A DNA stretch of 64,000 bases from an uncultured Gammaproteobacteria bacterium (GTDB lineage: Bacteria > Patescibacteriota > Microgenomatia > Daviesbacterales > UBA10151): NCBI GenBank assembly GCA_964387865.1, contig CAYLXC010000001.1, positions 50,597 through 114,596 of the forward strand, given 5' to 3'. The notes below the pieces were generated by a model. The model did no database searches. It saw only the letters and a list, made by a program, of their open reading frames with translations, and was not told the DNA's origin. Made by a program: the position numbers and the translations under genes. Below are positions 2,831-62,515 of the stretch, one piece after another; within the stretch, counting starts at the first letter, position 1; each line of letters starts with the position of its first letter.

Positions 2831-4486
2831 ATGGCCAAATTAAATCAAAGAGCTGCTGCCCATATTCTTCTTCTTGTAACAGCAATAGGCATTATTGCAT
2901 TAACTCTGGTTACTAATACATTCTCTTTTAAGGACAAACTATTCTCCCAGCTTTTTCCCAAATCTAAATCATTCGCATCACAATTGTATGAATCTACTCC
3001 TCTAAATGAATTATCCATGTACCCTAAAGCAAGTAATAATATTCAGTTATTTGCCTATTTTGGGGTAAATAAATTCCAACAAAACGTTCCTCAATTCGTC
3101 AAGGATTATCTGGCAAAAGAAATGGACTTTTTTTTATTTGATTTCCAACATGATTACCCCTGCATTGATAGTGGAAATTACGATTTTCCCTGTCCAAACA
3201 ATAATTATAATTTTTCAGGGCTTTGGAATTTAACAAGCGATCTTAAAGCGATTTTACCCAACAAATTAAAAGTTATTATTCATGGCTGCGAAGCATTTGG
3301 GAATCACCCCTGGTGCCCCTCTTTTCCAATACTTACTGATAATGACATTATGCACAACAAAGATAGTTCTATTAAAAGGTATATCTTAGGTTCAAGACTT
3401 TTTAATGTAAATAATCCCACAACCAGAGATAAGATTGCTTTGTATTGGAGAGATACATTTAATACAAAAAATGTAGATGGAGTTGTTTTTGATTCATTTA
3501 ATCCTGATCAGGCAGCCTCACTTGGCAGGGGGTCCTGTTTGGATGATACTTGCGACACCACTATTAATCCTGCGTCATTTATTACTGATCGGGCCGAATT
3601 CCAAAGCTGTTTGGAAGGACCTTGCGAAACTTATGATTTTTGGACAGAAAGGATGGGAGCATTTGGAAGGGAAACTATGAATTCCTCTCCTGGAAGAGAA
3701 GTTATATATAATGGTTTCTCACTGGATCCAAATTCAAAATACGGTCCTTACAACAGTAATTTTACGGATTACTTCACAGGAGCTTTAATTGAATATCCCC
3801 AGGAAATGATATTTAGCCCGGAAAAGTTTAAAAACTACTTGGACGCCATTAATTATATTCTGAACAAAGGCAAAAAATTATTCATTATTTTTCAGCCTCA
3901 GCTATCAAGCATCCCCTCATTAAATATCAATTTGAATTTGGAAAGATTTTTCCTTGCAACTTATCTTCTGCTTCAAAAGAATTCTTATACTTTTTTTAGC
4001 TACCATCCGGGAGAACCATATAGATTGGATTCTTCGGAATGGCTTTATTTTTATAAAGACTGGAATTTGGATTTTGGTACACCTTTAGATTTCTACAGAA
4101 GTGTAAACTCGCCTGATTTATATTACCGCCAATATAGCAATGGCTATGCAGTTGTTAACTCATCAGATTTTTCTGTAAACTTTCCGTTCCCGCCGGGTGA
4201 ATGGCGTGAGTGGGATCCTTATGATAGTTCAAAAGGTGTTAGCGGATCAACAGCAATACCACCTAAAACTGGAAAATTTTTCTTTGAAGCTTCCAAGTTC
4301 CCAACTCCTTCCCCTACTCCCCCACCCAAGATAGGCGATATAAATGGGGATGGGGCTGTAAATGTAGTGGATTTCTCGATTCTATTATCTAAATGGAATA
4401 CAGCAGATATAGGTGCTGATTTAAATGGAGACGGAATAGTTAATGTAGTTGATTTCTCAATCCTTTTATCTAATTGGGGGACATAG
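2831..4486 (+). CDS. secreted/membrane-anchored protein (551 aa) with a C-terminal tandem type-I dockerin module after a Pro/Thr linker; the central domain is possibly glycoside-hydrolase-like
   Basis: N-terminal signal-anchor (MAKLNQRAAAHILLLVTAIGIIALTLV), linker PTPSPTPPPK, and two dockerin repeats GDINGDGAVNVVDFSILLSKW / DLNGDGIVNVVDFSILLSNWGT (DxNxDGxVNxxD calcium-binding pattern). Confidence 0.7.
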   Translation: MAKLNQRAAAHILLLVTAIGIIALTLVTNTFSFKDKLFSQLFPKSKSFASQLYESTPLNELSMYPKASNNIQLFAYFGVNKFQQNVPQFVKDYLAKEMDFFLFDFQHDYPCIDSGNYDFPCPNNNYNFSGLWNLTSDLKAILPNKLKVIIHGCEAFGNHPWCPSFPILTDNDIMHNKDSSIKRYILGSRLFNVNNPTTRDKIALYWRDTFNTKNVDGVVFDSFNPDQAASLGRGSCLDDTCDTTINPASFITDRAEFQSCLEGPCETYDFWTERMGAFGRETMNSSPGREVIYNGFSLDPNSKYGPYNSNFTDYFTGALIEYPQEMIFSPEKFKNYLDAINYILNKGKKLFIIFQPQLSSIPSLNINLNLERFFLATYLLLQKNSYTFFSYHPGEPYRLDSSEWLYFYKDWNLDFGTPLDFYRSVNSPDLYYRQYSNGYAVVNSSDFSVNFPFPPGEWREWDPYDSSKGVSGSTAIPPKTGKFFFEASKFPTPSPTPPPKIGDINGDGAVNVVDFSILLSKWNTADIGADLNGDGIVNVVDFSILLSNWGT

Positions 4487-4528
4487 AAAGTTGACTTTAA
4501 TCCCAACTTAGCTGTTAATTAAACTAGA

Positions 4529-6316
4529 GTGAATAAATTAAATCAGGCAGGTGCTTCTCATATACTCATTCTTGTTGCTGTTGTAGGCTTTCTCTTTTTT
4601 CTACTAATATCCAACGCTTTCGACTTTAAAGATAAACTTTTTAGCAATTTATTCCCTAAACCTCCATCACATGCAGTTTCTCCATATAAAATCGGTGCCT
4701 ATTATTTTGGTATGTGGTCATCTACAGATACTGTACCGGATCATCTGGATAATGTTGAAAGAGTTTATGGAAGACGAGATCTGTGGGGAGGAGTAAAAGA
4801 CTTTTATGGTTTAGAGCCGGGAATCCCAAAAGATACCAGAGGCTGGACCGGAGATTTTTCTCATCTCAAACCGGAAATTGGATACTATGATTACAGTATT
4901 TCTGGTCCTACTATTCTAGAACAACAAATAATTCAGGCTAAACAAAACGGGTTAAGTTTTTTTAATTTTTACTGGTATTGGGATTCCACATATAAAAAAG
5001 AATTTCTTAGCAGTGGAATAAATTCTTTCTTGCAAGCAACCAATAAAAATCAGCTGCAGTTTATGATTTCAATTGCAGCTCATCCTTGGTGTAATGGCCC
5101 TACATGCCTATCAATACCTCTTCAGGATGGAGTGCAAACTACTCAAATTATTGTGGATAAATATTTCTCTCAACCAAATTATCTTAAAACTCAAAATGGA
5201 AGACCGATTATATTTATACTTGACTCACGAGGTATGTATGGAGGAACAATACAAGATACTCAAGACTATATTTCCCTTTTAAAACTAACTTCACAAAACA
5301 GATTAGGTGTTGAACCAATTGTGCTGATTTCCGTTGAAAATCCAGATGCCAGATCAATTACTAATACTGATGGATATTCTTGCGTAGCCACCTATATTCA
5401 ACCTTCTGGAGCACAATCATATCAATATTATCTTGATAATTTTACAAACCATTTTGCAACTTTCACTGATAAACCGCTCATGCCATGTTTTGTGAGTAAC
5501 TTTGATGAACGTCCAAGGCAAGATATATCAATAACAGATAGGAACCAAATACGATATTTTAGTGATTTTTCAGAAACACTTTTTAGGGATGGGGTTACTC
5601 GGGTTAAACAATACATGGATTCCCAAACAAATGAACTTAGTAAGATATTAACAATTTATGCATGGAATGAATGGCATGAAGGTGGAATAATAGAGCCTAA
5701 TGTGAGAGATAAAAATAAAAGGTTAAGCATAATAGCTGAAACATTTAGCTTAACAACAAACCCTATCGGTACTTTTGATCTTGCAAACTGCTCCTTAATA
5801 GAAGGCTGGACCTGTGATGCTGATGATTATAATGCTACGTTGAATGTTCACCTTTACAAGGATGGGCCCTATGGAAGTGGGATATTCATCGCATCAACAT
5901 CTGCAAATATTACAAGGGAGCCAGCTGTTGGAAGTTCTTGTGGAGGAAATCCCAATCATGGATTTTCTTATGTAACACCACCCTCACTAATGGATAGCCA
6001 GCCGCATACAATTTATGCATATGGTATAGATATCCCTTCCGGAACTAATTCCATTCTAAATGGTAATCCTAAAACTATTCAGTGTAATCCCACTCCCTCA
6101 CCTACCCCAACCCCAAGTCCTTCCCCATCTCCTACTCCTACCCCTACTCCACCTCCTAAGACTGGGGATATTAATGGAGATGGATCCGTAAATGTAGTTG
6201 ATTTCTCGATCCTTTTATCTAAATGGAACACATCAGATTCTGCATCTGATCTAAATGGAGATGGGATAGTTAATGTAGTAGATTTTTCTATACTTCTATC
6301 TAACTGGGGGACGTAA
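4529..6316 (+). CDS. paralogous secreted protein (595 aa) with the same N-terminal anchor and C-terminal dockerin module but a different central (putative carbohydrate-active) domain
   Basis: N-terminus MNKLNQAGASHILILVAVVGFLFFLL...DFKDKLFSNLFPK is near-identical in pattern to the upstream gene. Linker PTPSPTPTPSPSPSPTPTPTPPPK. Dockerin repeats GDINGDGSVNVVDFSILLSKW / DLNGDGIVNVVDFSILLSNWGT. The last ~170 nt of each gene are nearly identical at the DNA level. Confidence 0.7.
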   Translation: MNKLNQAGASHILILVAVVGFLFFLLISNAFDFKDKLFSNLFPKPPSHAVSPYKIGAYYFGMWSSTDTVPDHLDNVERVYGRRDLWGGVKDFYGLEPGIPKDTRGWTGDFSHLKPEIGYYDYSISGPTILEQQIIQAKQNGLSFFNFYWYWDSTYKKEFLSSGINSFLQATNKNQLQFMISIAAHPWCNGPTCLSIPLQDGVQTTQIIVDKYFSQPNYLKTQNGRPIIFILDSRGMYGGTIQDTQDYISLLKLTSQNRLGVEPIVLISVENPDARSITNTDGYSCVATYIQPSGAQSYQYYLDNFTNHFATFTDKPLMPCFVSNFDERPRQDISITDRNQIRYFSDFSETLFRDGVTRVKQYMDSQTNELSKILTIYAWNEWHEGGIIEPNVRDKNKRLSIIAETFSLTTNPIGTFDLANCSLIEGWTCDADDYNATLNVHLYKDGPYGSGIFIASTSANITREPAVGSSCGGNPNHGFSYVTPPSLMDSQPHTIYAYGIDIPSGTNSILNGNPKTIQCNPTPSPTPTPSPSPSPTPTPTPPPKTGDINGDGSVNVVDFSILLSKWNTSDSASDLNGDGIVNVVDFSILLSNWGT

Positions 6317-9726: not shown

Positions 9727-11079
9727 TTACTTTTTACTTAATCTAACATCCACTCTTTCCATATCCCTTGGAAATAGAGAAGCTTCCCTTATATTGGCAA
9801 GATTAAGAATATGCATAGTTATTCTCTCAAGTCCAAATGAAAAACCACCTTCAGAGGGCATGCCAAATTTAAAAGCCATCAAATACATCTCAAAATTTTT
9901 TGGATCCATGCCATGAGATTTAATTGACTCAACTAGCTGGTCATAGTTATTTATTCTCTGGCTACCACTCATTATCTCCACTCCTCTGAAAAGAAGGTCA
10001 TAGCTTAAAGAATAATTAGGATCTTTTGGATCTGGCATAGTATAAAAAGGTTTTGCAGCAATTGGAAAATGAGTCACTGTGACAAAATCGCTCCTATGTT
10101 TTTCTTTTGCCCAATTACATAAATCAATCTCATCTTGTGGAGTTAAATCTTTTTCATTGCGATTATCTCTCCCGAATTCTTTGAAGATTAATTCCTGCGC
10201 TTCCCTCAGTGTAAGCCTTGGGATCTTACCGTAGGCAACGGCATCCACACCAAACTCATCCAGTATATCTTTACATTTTTCTTCTGCATGTTTAATAGTT
10301 TCAATAGCAACTTTTTCCAAAAGGTCCAAAAGGTCTTCAAATTCAACAAATCCAATCTCACAATCCATTTGGGTGATTTCTGCCAAATGTCTGGTTGTAA
10401 CTGAAGGTTCTGCTCTGTAAGCCTTAGTCACTGTAAATACACGTTCAAAAACAGGAACTAGCATTTGTTTATAAAGCTGGGGACTTTGAGTAAGAAAAGC
10501 TTTGTGTTCAAAATAATCTATTTTAAAAACTTCTGCTCCTCCTTCTGTTGCAGATGCAGCAATTGTGGGAACAACAATTTCAGTACATCTTAATTCTCTT
10601 GCAGATTTTCTAAAACCATCCAGAATTGCCTCTTGAACCTTAAAAATTGCTTTAACCTTTGGATGCCTTAAAGTTAAAGATCTAAAATCCAAAAGGGTTG
10701 GAAGTTGTAAATCTAAATTCTTTCCTCCCATATCAAACGGTAATTCTGATGCTTTTGATAAAACTTGAATACTTTCTGCAGAAATTTCAATTTCACCGGT
10801 TGGGATTTTTTTGTTTACCATATGTGGAGGCCTTTTATTAACCTTTCCTGTTACGGAAACAACATCTTGGGGATGTAGATCCCTCACCTCGAAGGTGGGC
10901 TTTGACTCCTTCGAGGTGAATGTGGTCTGCTGCGATACTACAACTTGAATTAGTCCACTTCGATCCCCTATATCCAAGAACAAAATTTTCCCATGATCAC
11001 GCCTGGTTTGCACCCAGCCATTAATTTTCACATTTTCACCTATTTTGTTATTACAATCTAATATTAATGTCCTATTCAT
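9727..11079 (-). CDS. aspS: class IIb aminoacyl-tRNA synthetase, aspartate--tRNA ligase (archaeal/short type; AsnRS cannot be excluded)
   Basis: N-terminal OB anticodon-binding fold. Motif 2 FRAE...TRHLAE and motif 3 GGFSFGLERI. 450 aa. Carries a 39-nt palindromic in-frame insert (see the repeat at 10885-10923). Confidence 0.8.
   Translation of the reverse strand: MNRTLILDCNNKIGENVKINGWVQTRRDHGKILFLDIGDRSGLIQVVVSQQTTFTSKESKPTFEVRDLHPQDVVSVTGKVNKRPPHMVNKKIPTGEIEISAESIQVLSKASELPFDMGGKNLDLQLPTLLDFRSLTLRHPKVKAIFKVQEAILDGFRKSARELRCTEIVVPTIAASATEGGAEVFKIDYFEHKAFLTQSPQLYKQMLVPVFERVFTVTKAYRAEPSVTTRHLAEITQMDCEIGFVEFEDLLDLLEKVAIETIKHAEEKCKDILDEFGVDAVAYGKIPRLTLREAQELIFKEFGRDNRNEKDLTPQDEIDLCNWAKEKHRSDFVTVTHFPIAAKPFYTMPDPKDPNYSLSYDLLFRGVEIMSGSQRINNYDQLVESIKSHGMDPKNFEMYLMAFKFGMPSEGGFSFGLERITMHILNLANIREASLFPRDMERVDVRLSKK
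10885..10923. repeat. palindromic element family B ('cacctcgaagg-tgggctttgactc-cttcgaggtg') inserted in-frame in aspS
   Basis: Perfect 11-bp inverted repeat around a 13-nt loop. A near-identical copy lies in cca (15823-15861). It encodes ...TSKESKPTFEVRD... in the aspS frame. Confidence 0.75.
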
Positions 11080-11160: not shown

Positions 11161-11208
11161 ATGCAAAACCTAAGAAGATATTTTAATTTCTTCTTTACCT
11201 TCGCTTAA
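11161..11208 (+). CDS. putative 15-aa Phe-rich leader peptide MQNLRRYFNFFFTFA
   Basis: Near-leaderless ORF directly after the promoter. Its stop codon sits at the base of hairpin A. The composition (FNFFFTF) resembles E. coli pheL ([15 protein letters not shown]). Confidence 0.35.
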   Translation: MQNLRRYFNFFFTFA

Positions 11209-11277
11209 ACGGAGGTTGGTTTTTGTGTAAAAAAACCAACATAACTTAACCTCCGTTTATAAGTGGAGGTTTTTTTT
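11207..11277 (+). promoter_or_regulatory. attenuator-like leader unit 1: hairpin A (aaacggaggtt...aacctccgttt) and alternative terminator B (acctcc..ggaggt + T8) whose 3' arm is the SD for the ATG at 11278
   Basis: Direct reading: 'ggaggt' (11211-11216), 'acctcc' (11249-11254), 'ggaggt' (11265-11270), 'tttttttt', then ATG. Confidence 0.5.
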
Positions 11278-11563: not shown

Positions 11564-11668
11564 ATGTCAAAAGTTGAAGTAATTGATTTAAGAAAAGTAG
11601 AAGTTATTCTTGGCCTCCTTATTTTAGTGCTCGTTACGGGCACTTTTTTGGGAGGTCTTTTTAGGTAA
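11564..11668 (+). CDS. putative 34-aa Leu/Val/Ile-rich leader peptide MSKVEVIDLRKVEVILGLLILVLVTGTFLGGLFR
   Basis: It starts right after the promoter. Its last codons (gggaggtcttttt) form the 5' arm of hairpin A of unit 2. Branched-chain residues (L8, V6, I3) are enriched, as in leu/ilv leader peptides. Confidence 0.35.
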   Translation: MSKVEVIDLRKVEVILGLLILVLVTGTFLGGLFR

Positions 11669-11720
11669 AAAATAACCTAAAAAAGAAAGTAATCAGACCT
11701 CCCTAACGGGAGGTTTTTTA
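11650..11720 (+). promoter_or_regulatory. attenuator-like leader unit 2: hairpin A (gggaggtct...agacctccc) and terminator B (cctccc-taac-gggagg + T6) that contains the SD of the next gene
   Basis: Direct reading of the sequence. Terminator B is a 6-bp GC stem with a 4-nt loop and a U6 tract, immediately followed by start codon TTG 11721. Confidence 0.5.
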
Positions 11721-15597: not shown

Positions 15598-17034
15598 ATG
15601 CATTATACACTACCTAATGAGGTAAAAAATATTTTAGATAAATTTAGAAAATCCGGATACCAAATTTATATTGTTGGAGGGGCAGTACGTGATCTTTTGA
15701 TGGGAAAAGAGATTAAGGACTGGGATTTTACAACAGATGCTAAACCTGAGGAAATCTTGAAAGTAATCCCGGAAGGTTTTTACGATAATAAATTCGGAAC
15801 AGTAGGAGTACCAACAGAGAACACCTCGAAGGTGGGCTCTGACTCCTTCGAGGTGAATGATGAAATCATGGAGATCACAACAATGAGAAAGGAAGGTAAG
15901 TATACTGATTTTCGCCACCCATCCGAAGTTTCCTGGACCAACAAAATTGAGGAAGATTTGGCAAGAAGGGACTTTACCATAAATGCTATGGCTTTGGGAA
16001 TCCCAAGCAAACACCTCCGAGGTGAAGATAATGGTGTAACACCAAGAGAACACCTCGGAGGTGAAATCCTGGAAACTGTGGATCCCTTCAGCGGCCAAAA
16101 TGATATTAAAAACCACCTCATCAGGGCTGTCGGAGACCCAACCAAACGCTTCCAGGAAGATGCTCTTCGTCTTATCAGAGCAATCAGGATTGCAACTGAA
16201 TTGGAATTTGACATAGATAAGGAAACATTTGAAGCCATCAAAAAAAATGCCAATCTTTTAAAAGAAATTGCCTGGGAAAGGATAAGAGATGAACTATTTA
16301 AACTCCTTGCATCCACGAATCCATACATGGGTACCTTGAAACTTAGGGAAGCGGGGATACTGCAAATGATTCTTCCAGAGCTTGAGCGCTGTTTTGGGAT
16401 AGTTCAGGAAGGTCCAAAACATGACAGAACTTATGACATTGGTGAGCACTCACTACTAACTTTAAAACATACCCCATCTTCCGATGCACTGACTAGATTT
16501 GCTGCACTTCTTCATGACATTGGCAAACCGGATACAGTGGAAAAGGCTCAAGATGGGAATGTCACATTTTATCAACATGATGTAGTTGGTGGAAATTTGG
16601 TTTTAAAAATAGCAAAAAGATTAAATTTATCAAGAAAACAAACAGATAAATTATTTAGATTAGTAAGATTCCATATGTTTACAGTTGCAGAGAATCAGAC
16701 GGATTCAGCAATAAGAAGATTTATTAAAAATGTAGGTCTGGAAAATATTGAAGACATGATGGCCTTAAGAGTTGGCGACAGGTTGGGAGGAGGGACACAA
16801 ACGGAAACCTCTTGGAGAATGGAAAAATTCAAAGAAAGAATTAAAGAAGTATTAAAAAAGCCATTTTCACTTTCAGATTTAAAAGTAAATGGTAATGATG
16901 TAATGGAAATTCTAAAGATTAAACCCGGCCCAAAAGTAGGTGAAATCCTCCAAAAACTCTTTGAAGAAGTCTTAGAAGATGCTTCTAAAAATAACAAAGA
17001 ATATTTATTAAAAAGGCTCCAAGAACTTAAATAA
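15598..17034 (+). CDS. cca: CCA-adding tRNA nucleotidyltransferase with C-terminal HD domain
   Basis: PolyA-pol/CCA head (GGAVRDLLMG...DWDFTT, RRDFTINA) and HD motif LLHDIGK. Contains three palindromic repeat inserts (15823-15861, 16023-16035, 16061-16073). Confidence 0.85.
   Translation: MHYTLPNEVKNILDKFRKSGYQIYIVGGAVRDLLMGKEIKDWDFTTDAKPEEILKVIPEGFYDNKFGTVGVPTENTSKVGSDSFEVNDEIMEITTMRKEGKYTDFRHPSEVSWTNKIEEDLARRDFTINAMALGIPSKHLRGEDNGVTPREHLGGEILETVDPFSGQNDIKNHLIRAVGDPTKRFQEDALRLIRAIRIATELEFDIDKETFEAIKKNANLLKEIAWERIRDELFKLLASTNPYMGTLKLREAGILQMILPELERCFGIVQEGPKHDRTYDIGEHSLLTLKHTPSSDALTRFAALLHDIGKPDTVEKAQDGNVTFYQHDVVGGNLVLKIAKRLNLSRKQTDKLFRLVRFHMFTVAENQTDSAIRRFIKNVGLENIEDMMALRVGDRLGGGTQTETSWRMEKFKERIKEVLKKPFSLSDLKVNGNDVMEILKIKPGPKVGEILQKLFEEVLEDASKNNKEYLLKRLQELK
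15823..15861. repeat. palindromic element family B copy ('cacctcgaagg-tgggctctgactc-cttcgaggtg') inserted in-frame in cca
   Basis: It differs from the aspS copy by one nucleotide in the loop. It encodes ENTSKVGSDSFEVND. Confidence 0.75.
16023..16073. repeat. two short palindromes, 'cacctccgaggtg' and 'cacctcggaggtg', which are reverse complements of each other, in-frame in cca
   Basis: Both are preceded by 'gaacacctc' and related to family B. They encode the cca-specific insertion ...KHLRGEDNGVTPREHLGGE... Confidence 0.6.
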
Positions 17035-53581: not shown

Positions 53582-53641
53582 AGTTAAGTTAAAAGTAGAA
53601 AGTTTAAAGTAAAAAAATTTTTCCTTTTTACTTTTGCCTTT

Positions 53642-53884
53642 TTACTTTAATCTAAATGTAATCCTCCCTTTATCCAAATCATACTGCGGACTCATCTCAA
53701 CCCTTACCCTATCTCCTTCCAAAAGCCTGATGTAGTGCATCCTCATTTTACCCGAGATATGGCACAAAATCACTCTGCCTACTAATTCAGGCAGTTTGGA
53801 ACTTTCCTCAATCTCGACTCTAAACAAGGTATTGGGTAAAACCTCTTGGACTTTACCCGCAATCTCTATTACATCCTTAGCCAT
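53642..53884 (-). CDS. infA: translation initiation factor IF-1
   Basis: S1-like OB fold ([12 protein letters not shown]...FRVE...). Confidence 0.9.
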
Positions 53885-62094: not shown

Positions 62095-62125
62095 AAGTTA
62101 GGGTTAAGGGTTAAGGGAAAAGTTT

Positions 62126-62515
62126 TTATTCTTTACCCTTTACGCTTTCCGCTTTACCCTTACCTCCTTTCTTACTATCCACTTTTCCCTCATCACTTAA
62201 CACTATCTTTATATGACTCATTCTTCTTTTATACGGCTTAACCCTGCCTCTTGATCCTGCTCTAAAACGGCGCATTTTTGTGCTTTCATTAATTTCAAAT
62301 TTTTTAAATCCTACCTTTTCTACATCCATTCCAGCATGTTTAGCATTTGCCAAAACTGTTTGTATGGCTTTTACCAAATCTCTTCCAGCTACTTTTGGTG
62401 TTACCATTAAAACATCAACTGCCTTTTGAGGCTCCATTCCTCTAACCATATCAGCAACCAACCTCAGCTTCCTGGGGCTAGTATGTATATAGCGTTGTAT
62501 TGTTTGTATTTCCAT
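62126..62515 (-). CDS. rplV: 50S ribosomal protein L22
   Basis: L22 core (ISPRKLRLVADMVRG). Confidence 0.9.
   Translation of the reverse strand: MEIQTIQRYIHTSPRKLRLVADMVRGMEPQKAVDVLMVTPKVAGRDLVKAIQTVLANAKHAGMDVEKVGFKKFEINESTKMRRFRAGSRGRVKPYKRRMSHIKIVLSDEGKVDSKKGGKGKAESVKGKE

Follow-up and report, generated by a model that had tools for sequence, protein, structure and literature searches.

Palindromes within aspS and cca of a Candidatus Daviesbacteria genome probably belong to an interspersed hairpin repeat family of Microgenomates

The window analysed here, a stretch of 64,000 nucleotides, carries a perfect palindrome within the aspartyl-tRNA synthetase gene aspS. With a probability of roughly 0.7, this palindrome is one copy of a very short interspersed hairpin repeat family that has colonised the Microgenomates (CPR), above all Candidatus Daviesbacteria, in a manner resembling Rickettsia palindromic elements (RPEs). 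The family units, which lie within essential genes, have lengths of 34–52 bp, and the family is apparently undescribed. No description was found in the literature on palindromic elements or MITEs of CPR, Microgenomates or Patescibacteria, or of these sequences. An RPE-like nature had already been proposed in the initial annotation, and it is supported by orthologue alignment, the recovery of more copies, AlphaFold loop positions and frame use. The guess of a CPR genome was right as well, the organism being Candidatus Daviesbacteria (Microgenomates, CPR). DNA synteny with Daviesbacteria loci was seen in MAGs carrying the label 'Gammaproteobacteria binchicken'.

Results

Hairpin elements in aspS and cca

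The palindrome in aspS was found at the place given in the initial annotation. Its layout on the + strand is CACCTCGAAGG-TGGGCTTTGACT-CCTTCGAGGTG, with 11-bp arms enclosing the 12-nt loop TGGGCTTTGACT (Table 1). The length of 39 nt given previously is wrong: the perfect palindrome comprises 34 nt, and the final five bases of the longer range (AATGT) lie outside it. One further T/A pair extends the palindrome to 36 nt (10884–10919).

The copy at site 1 of cca differs from the aspS copy by one loop base (T to C), as had been described. Both copies lie the same way round on the + strand and the two genes are antiparallel, which confirms the opposite gene orientation. The predicted similarity of the peptides also holds, since both copies are read in the frame C/ACC TCG AAG ... 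TTC GAG GTG. The sense (-) strand of aspS yields TSKESKPTFEV and the + strand of cca yields TSKVGSDSFEV. A third family member at site 2 of cca had been overlooked. Its arms differ from the type A arms by compensatory changes, and its 30-nt loop TGAAGATAATGGTGTAACACCAAGAGAACA results in the peptide (K)HLRGEDNGVTPREHLGG(E).

A chance origin is ruled out by shuffle tests of the 11-mer arm and the 22-mer core. With up to one mismatch the arm has 6 matches compared with 0.38 expected, a number reached in none of 100 shuffles, and the core has 2 matches compared with 0.00 expected. The type A elements have folding z-scores of -5 as DNA and -4.5 as RNA, the RNA hairpin having a stability of about -21 kcal/mol, and the 52-nt element at cca site 2 reaches -9. 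A search of the 64-kb window with a type A profile (nhmmer) revealed no additional decayed copies, and Rfam 15 gave no match over the three elements, neither at the gathering threshold nor at E <= 1.

Table 1. Hairpin elements in the window, their host genes and the shared flank.
Feature	Position	Strand	Description
Host gene aspS	9727..11079	-	archaeal-type non-discriminating AspRS, 450 aa
Type A hairpin element in aspS	10885..10918	.	34-nt perfect palindrome, 11-bp arms
AATG flank	10919..10922	.	same in cca copy; comparison of aspS and cca copies
Host gene cca	15598..17034	+	class II CCA-adding enzyme with HD domain, 478 aa
Type A hairpin element in cca, site 1	15822..15855	.	loop TGGGCTCTGACT
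52-nt family member in cca, site 2	16012..16063	.	arms CACCTCCGAGG/CCTCGGAGGTG

Orthologues and protein structure

In AspRS from the window 19 residues are found where most Daviesbacteria orthologues have 7, and in the CCA-adding enzyme 16 and 26 residues are found where orthologues typically have 3 and 5. The net insert lengths in both alignments are multiples of three, with a net gain of 12 amino acids in aspS. Homologous residues are absent from the insert sites in the structures of Thermus and Thermococcus AspRS and of Bacillus CCA-adding enzyme. Empty and solo sites could be read directly at the DNA level, and an empty orthologue (L243; GTT AAA AAT CAA GTT) lacks a palindrome seed. Judged from these alignments, the inserts at all three sites in aspS and cca are lineage-specific in-frame insertions, since the loop at each of these sites is short in most orthologues.

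The assignment of the aspS insert to the anticodon-binding domain proved correct: it is located between β3 (residues 42–47) and β4 (residues 72–81) of the N-terminal OB-fold. In the AlphaFold models, all inserts map to low-confidence loops between β-strands, as the proposed structure mapping was meant to reveal. In the CCA-adding enzyme these are the low-pLDDT segments 76–87 and 139–155, which lie between strands 68–72/90–95 and 132–134/159–161, respectively. By inference from the reading frames, the inserts would be translated into short loops on the protein surface.

Family census and host lineage

The check for further copies was successful in public genomes. A scan with the exact arms resulted in 113 stretches, of which 88 are low-GC loci from 35 Microgenomates assemblies. 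Among the unique type A copies, 81 of 86 (94%) fall within ORFs of 100 aa or more and occur in either orientation. The host genes include those for CysRS, RF, MurB, GAPDH, UppS, thiolase and sortase. The type A loop is asymmetric (TGGGC-YY-TGACT) and is enclosed by GC-rich arms of about 11 bp, most commonly CACCTCGAAGG/CCTTCGAGGTG. In the flanks of the 86 copies, A is found at -1 and a weak RA bias at +1/+2, with A at +2 in 57 of 86. Including the RA bias would extend the inserted unit to 36 nt, i.e. 12 codons.

Copy number is low. The sampled loci of one assembly contain up to 13 copies, and the window contains 3 per 64 kb at a coding density of about 92%. Subfamilies are lineage-specific (11 copies in one assembly, all of type C/D, and 7 in another, all of type A), which points to bursts of spread.

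Reading frames

Of the six possible readings of the element, five are free of stop codons. In-frame use independent of orientation, as seen in the aspS and cca copies, is general: five frame/orientation states account for the 81 of 86 copies inside genes (O1f1 27, O1f2 5, O2f0 23, O2f1 20, O2f2 6), and the state that contains a stop codon (O1f0, TGA) is never seen. A strong deficit affects one frame, with 11 of 81 copies, and few genes read the element in the Pro/Arg-rich frame. Three unrelated peptides result from one DNA element read in different frames. The loop orientations in the mRNA are distributed 32 to 49, and the stop-codon filter by itself predicts about 32 to 49. The overall picture agrees with insertion and later selection on the peptide product.

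Conservation of stem, loop and arms

The stems covary across copies and the loop is conserved. When copies were gathered by loop sequence only, 69 cells were changed on both sides compared with 27.5 +/- 4.3 after shuffling, a value matched in none of 500 shuffles. At the orthologous aspS site a change of AAG to GAG is compensated by TTC to TCC, and in several copies loop positions 3 and 10 have swapped G.A for A.G. The initial annotation had interpreted the arms as an anti-SD/SD pair. This resemblance is probably incidental, since outer arms of the sequence CACCTG, CACCTT and CATCCC also occur with matching partners. We therefore rejected an SD/anti-SD function as the defining feature of the arms, given that copies gathered by the loop alone have different outer arms whose changes are compensated.

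Only 21 of 183 identical-residue pairs differ in the arm codons, compared with about 47% gene-wide; arm synonymous sites are thus about four times more conserved than those of the host genes. Near-identical 34-mers are kept at orthologous sites of lineages whose synonymous sites are near saturation. Simple junk would not have survived in this state; the low number of differing codon pairs implies that a constraint or a homogenising force acts on the arms, and this could reflect a host function. Decay does occur in places: the proteins P0034 and P0256 are 97% identical overall and heavily diverged inside the element. Orthologous sites also differ in the form of the element. The loop is flipped at one site (L052 compared with L088), and solo and full forms differ in frame by 27 nt (L072 and L073) or 21 nt (L245 and L242).

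Searches for an enzyme, a parent element and target-site duplications

Neither a transposase nor a recombinase with a link to the elements was found. A Pfam scan of 20 ORFs from the initial 24 kb of the window detected no transposase-type domain, only housekeeping genes or genes without assigned function. The 1.06 Mb of low-GC Microgenomates DNA that had been sampled gave nothing below E = 0.7 in a tblastn search with E. coli RayT, an insensitive result from a single distant query and fragmentary sampling. In 0.75 Mb of loci, neither a parent IS with these arms as terminal repeats nor arm pairs 0.7–3 kb apart were found; the solitary arms there belong to decayed copies or to type B units. Target-site duplications are visible neither in the listed flanks of the copies nor at filled, solo and empty orthologous sites. 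Viral contigs contained one unrelated 33-nt match to the exact-arm pattern and no sign of phage carriage.

No presence/absence polymorphism was found among near-identical genomes. In protein clusters at 90% identity, examined for presence/absence alleles, the length differences are start-site calls; the exception is the pair P0034/P0256, which differs inside the element. An RT gene beside aspS in L236 is a generic RT under the family cut-offs and has no link to the repeats.

Discussion

Proposed origin and alternative explanations

A copy of the RPE-like repeat family entered aspS in an ancestor of the lineage and is read through without interruption. We propose that the repeats would spread at the DNA level and in trans by an enzyme that recognises the folded single-stranded hairpin. 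Such an enzyme is suggested by stem covariation around a conserved loop, by a bias on one flank only, and by the fact that neither target-site duplications nor a parent IS were seen. The nearest known model for such a spread is the HUH/Y1 'peel-and-paste' mechanism of IS200/IS605 and REP-RAYT. After insertion, complementarity of the arms would be kept by hairpin-templated (quasipalindrome) correction, gene conversion or selection. The loop may flip in place, and internal GGTG/CACC direct repeats may give rise to in-frame deletions that leave 13-nt solo palindromes.

The strong conservation of synonymous sites in the arms, the persistence of near-identical 34-mers and the covarying stems around a conserved loop, including the G.A to A.G swap, would also be expected of functional genomic signals held by selection. 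These could be ssDNA or RNA sites for a CPR-specific protein, acting in recombination, replication, DNA uptake or RNA processing, with translation as a tolerated side effect. We consider this unlikely, given the low density of 3 per 64 kb, the many orthologues with plain short loops and no copy at all, the rapid decay of some copies (P0034/P0256) and the lineage-specific subfamilies; a loop-specific RNA function is further disfavoured by loop orientations at the ratio set by the stop filter. A broader and doubtful proposal is that the hairpins form a maintained ssDNA or RNA signal system of CPR, with a conserved loop, a covarying stem and a putative lineage-specific binding protein. Complementarity would then be actively preserved inside essential genes, and loop inversion together with module swapping at fixed protein loops would provide these minimal genomes with an inherent means of varying the surface loops of housekeeping enzymes.

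The elements might alternatively have arisen without transposition, by in-place growth at fragile short palindromes such as the 13-nt CACCTC-N-GAGGTG solos through template switching and hairpin-primed synthesis, their likeness being due to gene conversion between sites. Solo and full forms at orthologous sites, different inner modules at one site in different lineages, the loop flip and the missing target-site duplication would all agree with such growth. It is nevertheless quite improbable, since local templating cannot account for dozens of unrelated genes that share the same arms and 12-nt loop, empty orthologues (L243) have no palindrome seed, and the solos are more simply explained as deletions between internal GAGGTG or CACCTC direct repeats. 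Removal of the elements before or during translation, by intron-like excision or by ribosomal bypassing like that of mitochondrial 'byps', would add nothing to the proteins. Nothing direct speaks for it, although the stable RNA hairpin is of the kind used in bypassing. The host frame is continuous through every copy, loss of 34 nt would break it, net insert lengths are multiples of three, and the biases against the stop-containing reading and against one frame are sensible only if the sequence is read; hence, removal is highly improbable. Apart from the small copy number in the window, nothing favours chance similarity, selection for the peptide as a protein motif, or an artefact of assembly. 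These explanations are already refuted: chance by the shuffle tests, the protein motif by the three unrelated peptides from the same DNA, and the artefact by the presence of the element in independent assemblies of many studies, at orthologous positions and with natural variation.

Comparison with known systems

Rickettsia palindromic elements reportedly go back to work by Ogata et al. in 2000. They have lengths of about 100–150 bp, and each is said to code for a conserved peptide (PMC10969869). As in RPEs, a repeated palindrome occurs in frame in unrelated housekeeping genes of a reduced genome and is read through as an extra peptide, the insert lies on the surface or in a loop, where the fold can accommodate it, and there are several families per genome. 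In-frame read-through insertion and a surface or loop position, the latter seen in AlphaFold models and as gaps relative to solved structures, were both found here. In contrast to RPEs, the Microgenomates elements of 34–52 bp are three to four times shorter, have perfect arms of about 11 bp that covary at orthologous sites, and occur in five frame/orientation states; the host is a CPR Microgenomates lineage and not Rickettsia. They are analogous to RPEs and not members, being set apart by their length and the unrelated host.

At one of their ends, REP elements have an unpaired tag of the sequence GTAG or CGTC (Di Nocera et al. 2013, PMC3733652). With REP/REPIN-RAYT systems the elements share GC-rich hairpins (20–40 bp in REPs), many copies, compensatory stem changes and asymmetry at one end, and intragenic REPs are reported in some species. 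However, REPs are overwhelmingly extragenic and often form inverted doublets beside RAYT, whereas the Microgenomates units are single, 94% intragenic, devoid of a GTAG or CGTC tag and flanked by a weak RA bias only, with no RAYT found in the 1.06 Mb sampled. By analogy, REP-RAYT is the most plausible mechanistic analogue, given its recognition of single-stranded hairpins without target-site duplication.

MITEs that fuse in frame (Coxiella QMITE1, PMC5896051; ERIC; Correia elements) are likewise non-autonomous, have inverted ends and form in-frame fusions with host ORFs. They usually comprise 50–500 bp, lie mostly between genes and possess target-site duplications as well as an identifiable parent IS; these features were not seen in the Microgenomates elements. 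Coding palindromes in mitochondria of Nematomorpha (PMC6649704) and the translated GC-cluster/hairpin elements of fungal mitochondria are also perfect inverted repeats that are retained at the nucleotide level in functional protein-coding genes. These are organellar and up to 284 bp long, and both arms code for conserved protein regions, whereas the Microgenomates repeats are dispersed insertions that code for extra disordered loop residues. DNA uptake sequences (USS/DUS) occur about once per kb and arise by point mutation in existing sequence, unlike the three copies per 64 kb seen here, which are insertions relative to orthologues. Translational bypass elements and introns break the frame or tolerate stops; in the Microgenomates copies the frame is continuous and 0 of 81 contain a stop.

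Implications and recurrent insertion sites

Rickettsia is the most prominent host described for selfish palindromes lying in frame in housekeeping genes, and the Microgenomates family would be an independent, far smaller and widespread case. Even streamlined genomes would thus still be open to repeats hidden inside proteins, and the repeats account for many unusual lineage-specific insertions among the CPR proteins considered here. For annotation, the inserts can be recognised by the signatures TSKESKPTFEV, TSKVGFDSFEV, HLEGVKAHLRG and HLRG...HLGG. Preservation of the hairpin at the nucleotide level points to a putative hairpin-recognising activity or correction process in uncultivated bacteria.

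The same few permissive protein loops are struck repeatedly by different family variants, and this recurrent use maps insertion-tolerant sites in AspRS, the CCA-adding enzyme and other enzymes. Across orthologues, the AspRS loop and both CCA loops contain elements in different frames, with different arm variants and even from other repeat families, and one NadE loop contains three elements in tandem.

Palindromic elements in aspS and cca

Three palindromic elements are present in the window, one in aspS and two in cca. The perfect palindrome in aspS described in the initial annotation was found, but its length of 39 nt was a miscount. It comprises 34 nt, or 36 nt (10884-10919) with one more T/A pair; AATGT at 10919-10923 lies outside, and its AATG part is common to the cca copy. 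The second copy, deviating in a single loop base, was recovered in cca as described. The two copies are oriented alike on the + strand, aspS and cca being transcribed in opposite directions. Reading both ORFs gave the same frame (in codons, C ACC TCG AAG...TTC GAG GTG) and, as had been proposed, similar peptides, TSKESKPTFEV in aspS and TSKVGSDSFEV in cca.

At the DNA level the resemblance of the copies exceeds chance, since the arm 11-mer with at most one mismatch has six matches against 0.38 expected (0/100 shuffles reach six) and the 22-nt core two against 0.00. Both type A copies fold far better than shuffled sequences, as single-stranded DNA (-13 kcal/mol, z ~ -5) and as RNA (-21 kcal/mol, z ~ -4.5). 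The third element, absent from the initial annotation, encodes HLRGEDNGVTPREHLGG and folds as DNA at -19 kcal/mol (z = -9). No further family copies were detected in the 64 kb with an nhmmer family profile.

Coordinates of host genes, elements and neighbouring features in the window and in public contigs (L numbers)
Feature	Location	Strand	Remarks
aspS	window 9727-11079	-	archaeal-type, non-discriminating AspRS (PF01336 + PF00152)
cca	window 15598-17034	+	class II CCA-adding enzyme with HD domain
Type A element in aspS	window 10885-10918		CACCTCGAAGG-TGGGCTTTGACT-CCTTCGAGGTG; 11-bp arms, 12-nt loop
Type A element in cca (site 1)	window 15822-15855		
Third element, cca (site 2)	window 16012-16063		52 nt; arms CACCTCCGAGG/CCTCGGAGGTG, 30-nt loop
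Other-family insert in cca	L237 3176-3205		
Family members, recJ-cca spacer	L072 1410-1422; L073 2497-2509; L234 7718-7758; L238 2911-2950; L239 35-76		
NadE-like gene	L031 105-986		2.8-kb contig
NadD-like ORF	L031 1112-1744		nicotinate-nucleotide adenylyltransferase-like
RVT_1 gene beside aspS	L236 5082-6077		
RVT_1 gene beside cca	L237 2443-2670		
Nested hairpins beside aspS	window 11647-11706, 11206-11259; L234 9747-9805; L236 663-720		intergenic
Split cca	L235 563-720		metagenome contig
Inverted repeats	window 62095-62209, 53584-53656		
Dockerin ORFs	window 2831-6316		

Insertions in surface loops

Orthologue alignments identified lineage-specific insertions in both genes. In most of 120 aligned AspRS orthologues seven residues separate 'QVV.' from 'LHPQDVV', against 19 in the window, a net gain of 12 residues or 36 nt over the common state. 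Neither Thermus AspRS2 (1n9w) nor Thermococcus AspRS (3nel) has homologous residues at the insert. In 120 CCA orthologues, site 1 typically spans 3 residues and site 2 spans 5, against 16 and 26 in the window; the Bacillus enzyme (1miv) is gapped at either site. In the AlphaFold model of the CCA enzyme (mean pLDDT 81) the low-confidence segments 76-87 and 139-155 are the two inserts, modelled between strands 68-72/90-95 and 132-134/159-161. In the weaker AspRS model (mean pLDDT 68.8) the insert follows OB-fold strand 42-47 and precedes strand 72-81. Judged from alignments and models, the window elements are insertions, with predicted positions in surface loops.

The same loops are hit repeatedly. 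Other AspRS orthologues carry HLEGVKAHLRG (identical DNA in a different frame), HLRG...HLGG units or a short derivative (solo), HLRGE, and the two CCA loops contain NTSKVGSDSFEV, TTSKESKPTFEV, NTSEVGFDSSEV, NTSGVGFDSPEV, KHLRGE...HLGG or HLPG...HLEG. Both CCA loops also harbor other palindromic repeat families, translated as VIPAKAGIQL / LDSRFRGNDK, VIASEAKQS...RNDN, SSAISYQLSDKKQKKSDDRRLTTDD and KGSDPQKGPTL (from AGGGTCGGACCCT...), in the Daviesbacteria proteins P0140, P0141, P0146, P0152, P0153, P0200, P0211, P0239 and others, in locus L068 (site 1) and in L237. Hence, in-frame colonization of loops extends beyond one family. A NadE-like protein, similar to NAD synthetase, has three tandem elements in a single loop; the neighbouring NadD-like ORF has two elements. 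On the simplest reading of these hot spots, essential proteins offer few insert-tolerant positions, and surviving copies accumulate there.

Distribution, subfamilies and translation

The search for more arm copies covered one genome per species with the pattern CACCTCGAAGG-N4-30-CCTTCGAGGTG and returned 113 stretches. Low-GC loci account for 88; they belong to 35 assemblies, assigned to Daviesbacteria, Curtissbacteria, Gottesmanbacteria, Levyibacteriota and unclassified Microgenomates or Patescibacteria; the high-GC matches are unrelated hairpins. The nearest named homologues of the aspS and cca products belong to Candidatus Daviesbacteria and other Microgenomates (window: 35.6% GC, ~92% coding). 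The low-GC MAGs titled 'uncultured Gammaproteobacteria bacterium isolate binchicken_*' (L001-L112) show DNA synteny with Daviesbacteria contigs (71-92% flank identity) and share these elements with them at orthologous positions. By these sequence comparisons, their Gammaproteobacteria label is evidently wrong.

With the arms kept constant, four loop types were defined: A (TGGGCTTTGACT, 12 nt), B (TG...CA, 17-20 nt), C (e.g. TGGCCGAATGGACT) and D (at least 20 nt, with an extended inner stem). A T.T / G-C / G.A motif beside the main stem is common to A, C and D. In one assembly all 11 copies are of type C/D and none is of type A, and in another all seven are of type A; the subfamilies are lineage-specific and have expanded within lineages.

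ORFs of at least 100 aa contain 81 of the 86 unique type A copies. By loop orientation relative to the gene (O1, O2) and reading frame (f0-f2), these 81 encode TSKVGFDSFEV (O1f1, 27 copies), HLEGVKAHLRG (O2f0, 23), TSKESKPTFEV (O2f1, 20), PRRSQSPPSR (O2f2, 6) and PRRWALTPSR (O1f2, 5); O1f0, which contains TGA, has none. The orientation ratio of 32:49 is the value predicted from the stop-codon filter alone, and the scarcity of the Pro/Arg frame points to selection acting at the peptide level. Together they argue for translation of the elements. Sampled hosts include CysRS, release factor, MurB, GAPDH, undecaprenyl-PP synthase, polyprenyl synthase, thiolase, GHMP and PfkB kinases and sortase. 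The family represents insertions of a consensus DNA into many genes, which are read through and filtered by frame and position.

The short recJ-cca intergenic spacer also holds family members. In L072 and L073 the solo CACCTCCGAGGTG lies upstream of recJ, its end 7 nt from the ATG, and its GAGGTG could serve as Shine-Dalgarno (SD) sequence for recJ.

Constraint on the hairpin

Metagenome copies were gathered by loop sequence alone (GGTGGGCTYTGACTCC). In low-GC contigs this loop is flanked by varied yet complementary arms (CACCTCCGA, CACCTGGAA, CACCTTCCA, CACCTCGGG, CATCCCCGG and others). The stem covaries: two-sided changes occur in 69 cells against 27.5 +/- 4.3 in shuffles (0/500 reach 69), and 78% of cells pair, against 43-55% with partners slid. 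Since complementarity stays while the arm sequence varies, the SD/anti-SD identity of the arms remarked earlier is not conserved.

Codons were compared in orthologues chosen by protein similarity (aspS: window, L234-L236; cca: window, L237-L242). Among same-residue pairs, arm codons differ in 21/183 against 46-48% gene-wide, where the pairs are non-independent and the orthologues were picked with the peptide still recognisable. The cca arm codons TCG, AAG, TCC and TTC are each found in 7/7, and the L235 aspS site has compensatory AAG->GAG and TTC->TCC changes. Decayed and deleted copies also exist. The AspRS proteins P0034 and P0256 (97% identical overall) diverge heavily only within the element (HLRG-EPEVKSGL-HLGGGQ versus HLRGGDTSDVSSESKPGRHIGSVH). 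Within some lineages, inserts are local hot spots of change.

Quasipalindrome template-switch correction is an established mutational mechanism. This process, gene conversion or selection may keep the arms perfect.

Mode of spread and relation to known repeats

At one orthologous position L052 and L088 carry the element with the loop in opposite orientations. A full type B unit of 40 nt in L073 corresponds to the solo alone in L072, a difference of 27 nt, and L242 and L245 differ similarly by 21 nt. Deletion between internal GAGGTG or CACCTC direct repeats explains these solos. The truly empty orthologue L243 has no palindrome seed, and no target-site duplication is visible at the sites compared. 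Oriented by their loops, the copies have asymmetric flanks: 51% carry A at -1, position +1 is G or A, and 66% carry A at +2. This bias is compatible with a unit of 36 nt or with a weak preference for certain targets.

Presumably, the elements spread in trans via an enzyme recognising the folded single strand, for which IS200/IS605 and the REP-RAYT system are the nearest models. Twenty ORFs from the window's first 24 kb were scanned with Pfam, and none was a mobilising gene; RayT tblastn gave no match in 1.06 Mb of sampled DNA. No parent IS was seen in 0.75 Mb of loci, and no sign of phage carriage in the viral contigs scanned. RVT_1 reverse-transcriptase genes adjoin aspS in L236 and cca in L237; their best NCBIfam match is a group II intron RT, far under its cut-off, and no link to the hairpins was found.

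The proposed likeness to Rickettsia palindromic elements (PMC10969869) is supported by in-frame insertion, read-through and loop position, with the length and the SD/anti-SD remark corrected. The behaviour is alike, but the present units, found in a host of an unrelated phylum, are three to four times shorter. REPs (PMC3733652) are similar in size and hairpin nature; however, their defining extragenic location and GTAG/CGTC tag are not features of these elements. Rfam gave no match, and full-text searches turned up no account of it in CPR bacteria and no mention of the element sequences.

Other repeats and loci

Nested hairpins, (TTT)GGGAGGTCT...AGACCTCCC(AAA), lie beside aspS and are conserved in three related genomes; a second, similar one in the window is AAACGGAGGTT...AACCTCCGTTT. 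These intergenic hairpins are without Rfam match. In L235 a deletion with frameshift interrupts cca, with ~18 codons lost (SWTNKIEEDLARRDFTIN region); the break does not coincide with an element, and the gene could be a pseudogene or misassembled. Further along, the window contains two inverted repeats, one with short GGGTTAA-like repeats (AAGTTAGGGTTAAGGGTTAAGGG...) and the other AT-rich and 32 nt long. They lie near a candidate ribosomal-protein gene cluster, suggested by a series of short ORFs on the minus strand. Dockerin type I domains form the ends of two neighbouring large ORFs, and one of the two additionally has a glycosyltransferase WbsX / GH99-like domain. Cell-surface equipment of this sort is uncommon for small CPR genomes.
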